From: a virus
Taxonomy: Duplodnaviria > Heunggongvirae > Uroviricota > Caudoviricetes
DNA: 11,657 nt
Direction: 5' to 3' (one strand)
IMG/VR virus record: IMGVR_UViG_2778261705_000010
Made by a program: the position numbers. Numbering within the stretch: position 1 is the first letter of the stretch; each line of letters starts with the position of its first letter. This document shows positions 3,001 through 6,000 of the stretch, one piece after another.

Positions 3001-6000
3001 CGGTTTTTCTGACGTCGGTATCCAGACCTGAAAAATGACGCCTTACCCGGCTCATCTGCTCATCGAAACGGACAGCATCCAGACTCAGGTCAATAACAAG
3101 ATCACCAACCGGCTGGGACATATCTCACACCTCCCGGAATCCCCGCTGAAGCCATCATTAATGCGGCATCATCCACCATGACATCCGCCACATCCGCAGA
3201 CGATAAAATATCGCGCCCTCCGTCCCCACCGAACCGGACGCCTCCGGCAAGTCCTGCCGCTTTCTGCATCAGCATTTTGTCCTCATCCGGCCTCTCCACC
3301 TGCTCTTCCTCATGCCGGGGGACAAGCAGACTGAAATCAGAGGGATGCATATCCGGATCGCAAAAAAACAGGCTGAGTACAGCGTACGTCAGCCCGGAAA
3401 AATGCATATCCAGCTGGGTATCCTGAAAATAATGCGTGCGGTAAAAACGGTGCCAGTCGGCATATTCGGTGGATGTCATCCCGGCAAGCATGGCGCGCCA
3501 GTCGGGTCTCCCCATCTCACGCGCCAGTCTGAGGGCAAAGTTCAGCTCGCCGTCGAAGACTTTCCCGCAGAAAAATCATCATCAGTCAGCGTGTTATTTT
3601 TCGCCACTTCAGTAATATCAGTATCCGGACGAACAGCCCCGCTCATCCCGGACAGGCACAACACCACGTCTTCCGCCCGGGCAATGGCATCGGCAGGCCA
3701 GGTGGTGAGCACTTCCTGCTCTATCTTCATCACGGCCTCATTCATTGACGGTGACTGCGTTTTCTGTGGATGGTTATGCCACAGGGACATCGCCACCAGA
3801 AACGCGCCGGTTCTGACGAGATCTTCCACGCTTACCTGCAGGTTGCCGCTGGATTCTGCCTGTTCTGCACGCCGTTTCAGGAGGGCAAGATGCTCGATAC
3901 GCTGCAGCGCAGACAATTCGGAAAGCGTGACAGACACACCGTTATATTCAAATTGTTCTGTTTTCAGAAACATGTATGACCTCCGTTTACCCTGCAGCGC
4001 CCGCTTCAGTAACGGTGACTTCAGCCACTGCGGCGAACTGACCATTTCCGCTCACCACAGGGATCTGCACCTTACCTGTCGCCACGCCGTTTACCGTAAT
4101 TGTCATATCTTTCACACTAATGGTGGCTTTCGACGGATCGGCGGAAACCGCTCTGAACGTCTTGTCTGTTGCACTTTCCGGCTCAAAAGAAACCGTCAGG
4201 GTGGTTGTTTTCCCTTTTGCCACCGTACCGGATGTCGGCGTCACCTTAATCGCACTGACCGGCGTAATTTTGCTGCGTTCTTCCGCTACAGAAGGTTTAC
4301 CCACGTTAGTGACTTTCACCGTGCGGGTGATCACTTCTTTCGCCGTCACGGCCTTACCGATACTGCTGACCCAGCCACGAAACACATCCACCGTGCCATT
4401 CGGAAAACGGATTTTATAGGCCCGGACATCGCCGCTTTCAAACCAGCCTATAAGCCCTTTCTGGCCTTCCTCTCCCGGTTTCCAGGCCAGCGTAAAACTG
4501 GTATCACCTGCAGATTTCTGCCCCTGCCCGGTCGCGGTCCAGTCCGCGTCTTCATCATCCAGGTAGTTATCATCGTAGGATTCTGCCGTCATCTCGCCCG
4601 GCGTCAGATCCTTCACCTTAGCCAGTCGCTGCCAGTCATCGTCTGACAACGGGTTTGCATAGGCGTCACCCTGACCGTTATAAACCCACAGGGTGGTACC
4701 GGCTCCTTTTACCGGCTCCAGGGGAATTCGTGTTTCGGCTTGACGTAGCCCGGACGTAACACGCGGGTTTCACCACCGCGATGACGCAGCACTTTTCCTT
4801 CAACAACCGGGGAGACATAGGCCGCCACCGGCGTTTTTCCGGTAATTTTGTCCAGCATCACCTCTTCGGTATGGAAATTCACCGTACGGCGGAAAAACAG
4901 CTCCAGAAACAGCGCACGAAATTTCACTTTTTGTTCGGTATAACCGAGTAACTGGCGGGTCGTAAACAATCCCATAAATCAGTTCCTTTCATTCAGAAAT
5001 CAGTCAGGCCACCGCGGTGGCCTGATAACGTGTTACGGCAGCGCCGCGTGACTCAGGGCACTGCCGGCAAAGGCATTTGCCTTTTTGTGTTCATCCACAC
5101 TTTCAGGCCAGCGGATTGCCTCCGTCGCAAAGGTCCCCGACTTGTAATAGGTCAGTACCGTCTCTGTGCCTTCAAGCGGCAGTACCAGTATGCCAACTGC
5201 ACTACCGGCTTTCTGTCCGTCCCAGACCACCAGTTTCCCGCTGGCTTCATCCAGCATCAGGGGCGTCAGTGCCGGTGTTGCCGAGGAAATCCCGCTGCTG
5301 CCTGTGGCGGTATGAGCCGGATCATTACCGGCAAAAATACGTACTTCCGCACGCTGTTCAGTGATGTTTTTCGTTACCATATTGTAAAAACCTCCTGTTG
5401 ATGGTCAGCACTGACTTCATGGCATGGCCATGAGCATTTTCACGTCCGCATCACCGTCTGCTGACGTCTGTGGCACGCCACCCTGTACCGCAGCCGGTGA
5501 ATGGTTCGCCATGATGCGTTCAAACAGGGCGGTTGTGGATGCAGAGACCGGTTCTGCCTTACCTGATCCCGCAGCCAGCACAGCCCGGGCGCTCTCCACA
5601 GTCATTCCCGGGCAGGCAGCCAGCTGTTCAGCCTGCGCCTCAGCCCCTTTTGCCTCATCCAGTGCCATGATCTGATCACGGAGTGAGGGTCCGGCATCCG
5701 CCTGCGGTGAAGCAGCCAGGATCGGGCGGGCTTTTTCCACCGTCATCTCCGGCATCGCCGCCAGCGTTGCCGCCAGTTGTTCACGACCGTTCGCTTCTTC
5801 ACACGCCATAATGCGATCGGCTTCACTCTGCGTGGATGCCACCGGCTGCTGCGGTGCCGCCGCGGCCAGAATCGCCCGGGCCTGTTCAACGCTCATGCCC
5901 TGTTGTCCTGCCAGCATCGTGGCAAGCTGTTCACGTCCTTTCGCTTCCTGGCATGTCAGGATCCCCATCACTCGCTGGTTCTCCTGCGCGGCGGCTTCCG

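Follow-up and report, generated by a model that had tools for sequence, protein, structure and literature searches.

Nu3, the scaffold of phage lambda, contacts E, C and itself, and is required for the incorporation of B, the portal (PMC3224144). A gene of the same type in an Escherichia coli prophage appears to carry, in three tandem copies, a helical segment that is found once in lambda. This raises several questions: is the repeat real, at what level is it maintained, how old and how unusual is it, and what might it do in head assembly? The gene lies in an 11,657-nucleotide stretch of DNA (hereafter the window, to which positions refer unless stated otherwise) that is 100% identical to a prophage of E. 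coli O157:H7 genomes. We used profile searches, protein self-alignment, structure prediction and comparative genomics to investigate these questions.

A nested protease-scaffold gene of the lambda type

The gene (Table 1) codes for a 501-aa protein that appears as WP_001254002.1 in the RefSeq O157:H7 genomes. Its S49 domain scores 122 bits against a Pfam cut-off of 24.9 for Peptidase_S49, and is also matched by sequence by the SppA structures 3rst and 4kwb (E ~5e-16), while the protein as a whole is assigned by PHROGs to phrog_53, head maturation protease (E ~1e-227). Alignment with phage 21 gp5 and lambda gpC shows that S162 and K214 are invariant among the three proteins. We take these residues to be the putative catalytic Ser and Lys of the S49 family; their 52-residue spacing agrees with the one we presume for SppA. 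The surrounding genes are arranged as in lambda, with a lambda-type portal gene at 6912-8504, the gene itself at 5417-6922, a decoration gene at 5033-5380 and a capsid gene remnant at 4709-4975, and with terminase and tail genes also in the neighborhood. Taken together, the S49 domain, the PHROGs assignment and the neighboring genes identify 5417-6922 as the homolog of lambda gene C.

Nested in the same frame is a 200-aa ORF with its own Shine-Dalgarno sequence. In both phage 21 records (M81255.1 and OL657228.1) this ORF is annotated as the gene 6 CDS with the same GAGGAGG as its ribosome-binding site, and lambda has AGGAGG followed by an ATG at the homologous internal position. The scaffold region is matched in three stretches by each of two further PHROGs profiles, 'head scaffolding protein' (phrog_8399, E = 8.5e-36) and 'capsid assembly protein' (phrog_8940, E = 2.7e-31). 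In both identity and architecture, we regard the 501-aa gene as a nearly certain instance of the lambda-type gpC/Nu3 pair, a nested prohead protease and scaffold. One frame would thereby yield two products with a common C-terminus, namely the 501-aa S49 protease and a 200-aa scaffold from the predicted internal start at Met302.

The closest characterized relative is phage 21, whose gene 5 (M81255.1, OL657228.1) is 98.6% identical to 5417-6922 at the nucleotide level across all 1506 nt. Its genes 5 and 6 have the same lengths (501 and 200 aa), internal start and ribosome-binding site as the prophage gene, and their products differ from those of the prophage by 8-10 amino acids. Unlike phage 21, the O157:H7 prophage is defective and has no intact capsid gene: a deletion of ~2.5 kb fuses the capsid gene at codon ~84 to the start of the tail tube gene, and the large terminase gene is frameshifted. 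The gpC homolog in this prophage is a relic, and since the capsid gene is mostly lost, the triplication here has no cis-encoded capsid protein on which to act.

Table 1. Features of the gpC/Nu3-like gene in the window
Feature	Position	Strand	Evidence
Gene 5 / gpC homolog, S49 prohead protease fused to scaffold region, 501 aa	5417..6922	-	ORF, Pfam, PHROGs, phage 21 identity, RefSeq annotation
S49 peptidase domain, aa 146-293	6044..6487	-	Pfam PF01343 Peptidase_S49, E = 2.8e-35
Shine-Dalgarno GAGGAGG, 4 nt 5' of internal ATG	6024..6030	-	Sequence read; phage 21 records
Nested in-frame ORF, 200 aa, from Met302 (ATG at 6019)	5417..6019	-	Phage 21 gene 6 / lambda Nu3 equivalent
Repeat 1 (R1), aa 317-358, RVMGILTCQEAKGREQLATMLAGQQGMSVEQARAILAAAAPQ, = 'Tri1 box'	5849..5974	-	Protein alignment; three short helices predicted
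Repeat 2 (R2), aa 370-408, RIMACEEANGREQLAATLAAMPEMTVEKARPILAASPQ, = 'Tri box'	5699..5815	-	Protein alignment
Repeat 3 (R3), aa 417-455, QIMALDEAKGAEAQAEQLAACPGMTVESARAVLAAGSGK, = 'Tri3 box'	5558..5674	-	Protein alignment
Conserved C-terminal tail, aa 456-501, ...TALFERIMANHSPAAVQGG...LMAMP	5420..5557	-	Homologous to tails of single-copy relatives

Three diverged copies of a protein module

The original prediction had placed three tandem copies of a helical unit, in frame and with a period of ~150 nt, in the Nu3-like scaffold part of the gpC homolog; the ORF, the Pfam match and the alignment with lambda agree on that location. Self-alignment of the protein recovers three units that start at aa 317, 370 and 417 (minus-strand positions 5974, 5815 and 5674); successive starts lie 159 and 141 nt apart, in keeping with the expected value. 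Their local BLOSUM62 scores are 101 (R1-R2), 87 (R1-R3) and 91 (R2-R3), against means of 26-28 for composition-preserving shuffles (n = 2000), which corresponds to z = 14.9, 11.4 and 13.0, respectively; 0 of 2000 shuffles scored as high as the observed pairs. The copies share the consensus I-M-x-x-x-E-A-K-G-R-E-x-L-A-x-x-L-A-x-x-P-G-M-T-V-E-x-A-x-x-I-L-A-A-A-P over ~40 aa, from which R3 has moved furthest, with GAE where the others have GRE.

As DNA, R1, R2 and R3 are 60-66% identical, and in-register seeds among them are only 12-15 nt long, at spacings of 141-156 nt. Tandem Repeats Finder, run on 5300-6300, reported no repeat at a score of at least 30; the DNA copies are too diverged for this program, and the repeat therefore needed to be demonstrated at the protein level. 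In an ungapped core of 34 codons, identity among the copies is 68-82% at codon positions 1 and 2 and 35-41% at position 3, and each pair of copies has 19-21 identical residues, 11-13 of them encoded by differing codons. Third positions are thus near saturation while protein similarity is kept, which indicates that the repeat has been maintained as protein and is old; the earlier surmise that the divergence of the copies speaks against a recent duplication is borne out.

These observations bear on two readings that dispense with a protein module. The periodicity might be a compositional artifact of a low-complexity helix rich in Ala, Glu and Gln, for which one could cite the Ala-rich character of the region and the silence of Tandem Repeats Finder at the DNA level. 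We give this practically no credence, given that no composition-preserving shuffle reaches the observed scores, that hundreds of protein clusters contain the unit by itself, as one discrete domain, and that the lambda-type Nu3 profile matches three separate stretches. Also very improbable, if marginally less so, is a role of the repeat as DNA or RNA, for instance as protein-binding sites or as an RNA structure within the late transcript. Two matches to the CII-site consensus pattern are indeed marked within the repeat region in the genome record of phage 21; however, these are simple pattern matches on the strand opposite the gene and have no periodic relation to the repeats, and the low third-position identity among the copies points to conservation in the encoded protein, not in the DNA or RNA.

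In an AlphaFold2 model of the 200-aa scaffold (mean pLDDT 67, pTM 0.27) each repeat comprises three short helices with pLDDT of 72-80, joined by linkers that fall below 50-62. A single unit modeled by itself reaches pLDDT 77 and pTM 0.51, with helices at residues 2-8, 17-24 and 31-40. Both models were built from shallow alignments, of 20 sequences for the scaffold and 33 for the unit, and are of moderate confidence; they suggest that the copies are most likely small, independently folding three-helix bundles, with flexible linkers between them. Among the nearest known systems we would tentatively place tandem three-helix-bundle binding modules, such as the staphylococcal protein A domains, UBA/CUE and RuvA domain III. 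Profile searches found no Pfam or NCBIfam family covering the module or the scaffold part, and a sequence search of the PDB returned SppA/ClpP matches to the protease domain only, with none for the scaffold part. A Pfam helix-hairpin-helix match in R3 was rejected as sub-threshold (E = 0.093; its 13 bits fall short of the cut-off of 24).

The tail and the comparison with lambda

The three repeats are followed by a C-terminal tail, whose stretch ERIMANH... had been read as a degenerate partial fourth copy. Although a further 'RIM' does occur 156 nt past the start of R3, at aa 469 (5518), the tail has no similarity to any of the repeats (z = -0.3 to 0.5). It does align with the C-terminal tails of family members that have one module, with z = 7.8 for one relative (P0209) and z = 3.0 for lambda, and the alignment of relatives shows two conserved motifs in this part, F-[DE]-x-F-M and L-M-S-M-P. 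Phage 21 reads FEHFM where the prophage gene has FERIM, so that the 'RIM' of the prophage is a local substitution that mimics the start of a fourth repeat. The supposed fourth copy is therefore to be dropped in favor of a tail that is present in single-copy relatives too.

Lambda gpC/Nu3 has the same gene order, an S49 domain ~61% identical to that of the prophage protein, and a homologous module and C-terminal tail, but it has exactly one module where the prophage gpC homolog has three. The triplication had also been taken to account for the ~60 aa by which the prophage protein (501 aa) exceeds lambda gpC (439 aa). This holds only in part: the two extra units contribute ~100 aa, and the observed excess is a net figure, because a 36-aa linker that precedes the module in lambda is missing from the prophage gene.

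Prior annotation and phyletic distribution

In M81255.1, which we take to be the record of Smith and Feiss 1993 (Gene 126:1-7), gene 6 carries three repeat_region features, the 'Tri1 box', the 'Tri box' and the 'Tri3 box', whose note reads 'function unknown; putative'. With an offset of 3359 between this locus and the window, these correspond to 5849-5952, 5702-5812 and 5558-5671, respectively, and fall inside R1, R2 and R3, which we had delimited independently of the Tri box annotation. The GenBank feature table makes it plain that the triplication is already known and has for decades been marked as Tri boxes in the head-operon record of phage 21. In the literature that we searched, we found no study of the structure or function of the C-terminal module of Nu3.

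Among records of isolated phages, 115 match the 200-aa scaffold and 20 of these cover at least 80% of it. The full-length form is found in viable isolated phages, among them phage 21, ev017, 4A7, 1W, 3W, the PhiR series and Gifsy-1; in phages of the types lambda, 434, phi80 and N15 the match covers one unit only. Of 5426 complete E. coli genomes, 1870 (about a third) have the 603-nt scaffold region, and the matched span was exactly 603 nt in 38 of 40 rows sampled across their ranking. An allele of 482 aa, which the cluster list had suggested as the commonest E. coli form, was rejected as such since the 603-nt three-copy form dominates the best complete-genome matches.

Three units are also kept in Salmonella and other enterobacterial relatives down to ~44% identity. 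Gifsy-1, whose alignment with the 200-aa scaffold is full-length at 53.5% identity, and other Salmonella and E. coli prophage gpC homologs have three modules of which R1 and R2 correspond copy by copy, though scaffold identity among these homologs is 44-65% and some of their tails are longer. Across multi-copy relatives, R1 finds its best match in R1 in 12 of 12 cases and R2 in R2 in 11 of 12; three-unit relatives with such copy-by-copy correspondence imply that the triplication is older than the spread of this clade. In one E. coli lineage, P0147, there are four modules, and their mutual identity of 73-89% points to a more recent expansion or homogenization.

Beyond these relatives, a profile of the unit shows that the module is carried by 458 protein clusters at 50% identity. 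Among the matches listed, excluding proteins already retrieved, one unit is present in 133 of 143 and, for proteins of at least 380 aa, in 55 of 57; an S49 domain lies upstream of the module in 10 of the 10 distant carriers tested. On these sequence comparisons, one unit is the ancestral and usual state, and three units characterize a narrow but very abundant enterobacterial lineage. The triplication, whose rarity had been implied, is hence largely ordinary: its copies are annotated as Tri boxes, and it is found in 20 of the 115 phage records and in the 1870 E. coli genomes, though the wider family is single-copy. As a discovery it carries little weight.

Copy-number alleles against a constant capsid background

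When the unit profile was applied to close E. coli homologs, several allelic forms were recovered besides the three-unit form of 501 aa. Two-unit forms of 451-452 aa have several R1/R2 hybrid junctions (CQEA|NGREQLA, GREQLA|A, VEQAR|P and APQ|ADAGPSL). A form of ~2.5 units and 482 aa results from a 19-aa deletion within R2 and is found (as P0038) on at least 1000 contigs, and there are further partial R2 deletions (a 472-aa form, P0136 and P0141). At the other end are a four-unit form of 551 aa with an R3/R2 hybrid unit, and one 657-aa protein with a bigger duplication, of 156 aa. The alleles and their hybrid junctions mark the array as a site of recurrent in-frame unequal recombination.

The 2-, ~2.5- and 4-unit alleles reside in head modules that appear intact. 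The major capsid proteins encoded there share 98.2-100% identity with one another and with that of phage 21, and the accompanying portals are 97-99% identical to the phage 21 portal; the lambda capsid protein is ~61-62% identical to the capsid proteins of these alleles. To judge from these sequences, copy number varies against an essentially constant capsid background. Since lambda assembles with one copy, and 2-4 copies occur beside the same capsid protein, valency does not appear to be critical.

Possible role in head assembly

Taken as a whole, the locus is in all likelihood best explained as a phage-21-type allele of the lambda C/Nu3 pair, with three ancient modules of ~40 aa, a conserved 46-aa tail and the mechanism proposed here. 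In this scheme, linkers rich in Pro, Gln, Ala and Ser would join the modules like beads on a string, and the module would anchor the scaffold and the protease inside the growing shell by way of the major capsid protein, or else of scaffold or portal subunits. Three copies would make the scaffold multivalent, with more avidity or reach. Once the shell is assembled, the protease would cleave the scaffold, with the linkers as plausible sites, and the fragments would exit. In-frame unequal recombination between copies would shift their number, with 2- to 4-copy alleles persisting. The module is probably a protein-binding element of the scaffold; that its partner is specifically the capsid protein, rather than the scaffold itself or a portal docking site, is a tentative proposal that falls somewhat short of probable.

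Protease and scaffold also share a C-terminal region in herpesvirus UL26/UL26.5 and in P2 gpO, an arrangement that delivers the protease into the procapsid, and there the capsid contact lies at the extreme C-terminus. To our knowledge, these proteins have no sequence or fold relation to the prophage gene, and we know of no tandem three-helix modules described in them. If the prophage scaffold resembles those of herpesviruses and P22, the capsid contact could be made by the extreme C-terminal tail and not by the repeats. Comparison of the extreme C-terminus of the scaffold with solved scaffold domains revealed no similar fold of the P22-type coat-binding helix-turn-helix kind.

Two other readings of the module compete with capsid binding through several copies, and we judge each of them unlikely, yet deserving of serious weight. 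The extra copies might be neutral length variation, generated by unequal crossing-over in a spacer-like part of the protein while one copy or the tail does the work. This would fit the sufficiency of a single copy in lambda and in 55 of the 57 full-length representatives among the matches listed, the occurrence of 2, ~2.5, 3 and 4 copies beside capsid proteins with a mutual identity of 98-100%, and the loss of the conserved GRE motif from R3 in this lineage. It fits poorly with R1 and R2 as recognizable orthologs, with residues conserved in all three copies down to ~44% identity despite saturated third positions, which argues for purifying selection on each copy, and with the marked predominance of the full three-copy length among the complete E. 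coli genomes sampled. Alternatively, and with the same likelihood in our estimate, the module might serve oligomerization or the docking of the portal or protease, so that the triplication would alter scaffold self-assembly or portal incorporation. The boldest version of the capsid-binding proposal, in which the Tri module is an autonomously folding three-helix capsid contact and copy number (1 in lambda; 2, ~2.5, 3 or 4 in E. coli prophages) is a naturally variable valency setting that measurably changes the kinetics or fidelity of assembly, strikes us as improbable, and more so than either. The original prediction that the triplication could alter capsid assembly found no evidence in its favor: the 2-4-copy alleles adjoin nearly identical capsid proteins, and the prophage's own capsid gene is mostly deleted.

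The use of these observations is a modest one. They delineate a discrete and widely conserved module of the S49 protease/scaffold proteins that stands outside curated families and solved structures, and the natural alleles of 1-4 copies beside near-identical capsid and portal proteins provide a ready series for studying scaffold valency in lambda-type assembly. A minor observation concerns lambda itself, where sequence comparison suggests that the RefSeq start of Nu3 (5132 in lambda) may differ from the start that matches phage 21 gene 6 (5342).

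Copy-number outliers and chimeric carriers of the module

Two database proteins depart from the usual number of the ~40-aa helical units. P0001, a 657-aa gpC homologue from one E. coli genome, gives six matches to the profile of the unit because it carries an internal duplication of 156 aa, running from the last part of the protease domain across the internal start and through two and a half units; the rearrangement could be genuine or an artefact of assembly. The other, P0147, from an E. coli lineage, contains four units that share 73-89% identity with one another, as against an inter-unit identity of 47-67% in the remaining multi-copy relatives compared. 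The sequences thus suggest a recent expansion or homogenisation in P0147, which would be independent of the old triplication. Chimeras are also frequent among the database 'proteins' with the module (P0080, P0084, P0234, P0237, P0242, P0243 and P0263), in which gpC is joined to tail-fibre-like sequence or to fragments of Nu1, portal, U, L or tape-measure proteins. These were probably generated by in-frame deletions in decaying prophages.

Scaffold starts and marked sites in lambda and phage 21

In the RefSeq record of lambda (NC_001416, L003), Nu3 is annotated as a 201-aa protein starting at 5132 (L003 1133), and this start has no obvious Shine-Dalgarno sequence. At lambda 5342 (L003 1343), the position homologous to the start of phage 21 gene 6, there is an AGGAGG followed by an ATG, and initiation here would yield a 131-aa product. 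The RefSeq start and the gene-6-homologous start differ, and the two 'Nu3-like' protein annotations are therefore not equivalent. The phage 21 record (OL657228.1, L002) also marks two 'CII binding sites' within the gene, based on the pattern ttgynnnnnnttgy; these look like chance matches to it.

Lesions in the neighbouring head genes

Relative to L006, which is intact, ~2.5 kb is absent from the window, namely the remainder of the major capsid gene along with the homologues of FI, FII, Z and U. The deletion junction lies directly next to where the tail tube (V-like) gene begins, and the capsid gene is flagged as incomplete in the RefSeq annotation. The large terminase gene is frameshifted according to the RefSeq annotation of the identical O157:H7 genomes. 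The small terminase gene is interrupted by an ISEc8 element (IS66-family, ~2.4 kb) in the complete O157:H7 genomes that match best; the window itself is free of ISEc8 and its small terminase ORF is unbroken, at 169 aa.

Coordinates of features in the window and in the phage 21 record
Feature	Window	L002 (OL657228.1)	Remarks
Major capsid gene remnant	4709-4975		~84 N-terminal codons left
Capsid deletion junction	4725-4734		10-bp overlap
Marked 'CII binding sites'	~5767-5780, ~6001-6014	1851-1864, 2085-2098	strand opposite the gene
Large terminase gene	8691-10677		two overlapping ORFs, 8691-10385 and 10336-10677
ISEc8 insertion point	10839-10846		8-bp duplication on both flanks in O157:H7 genomes
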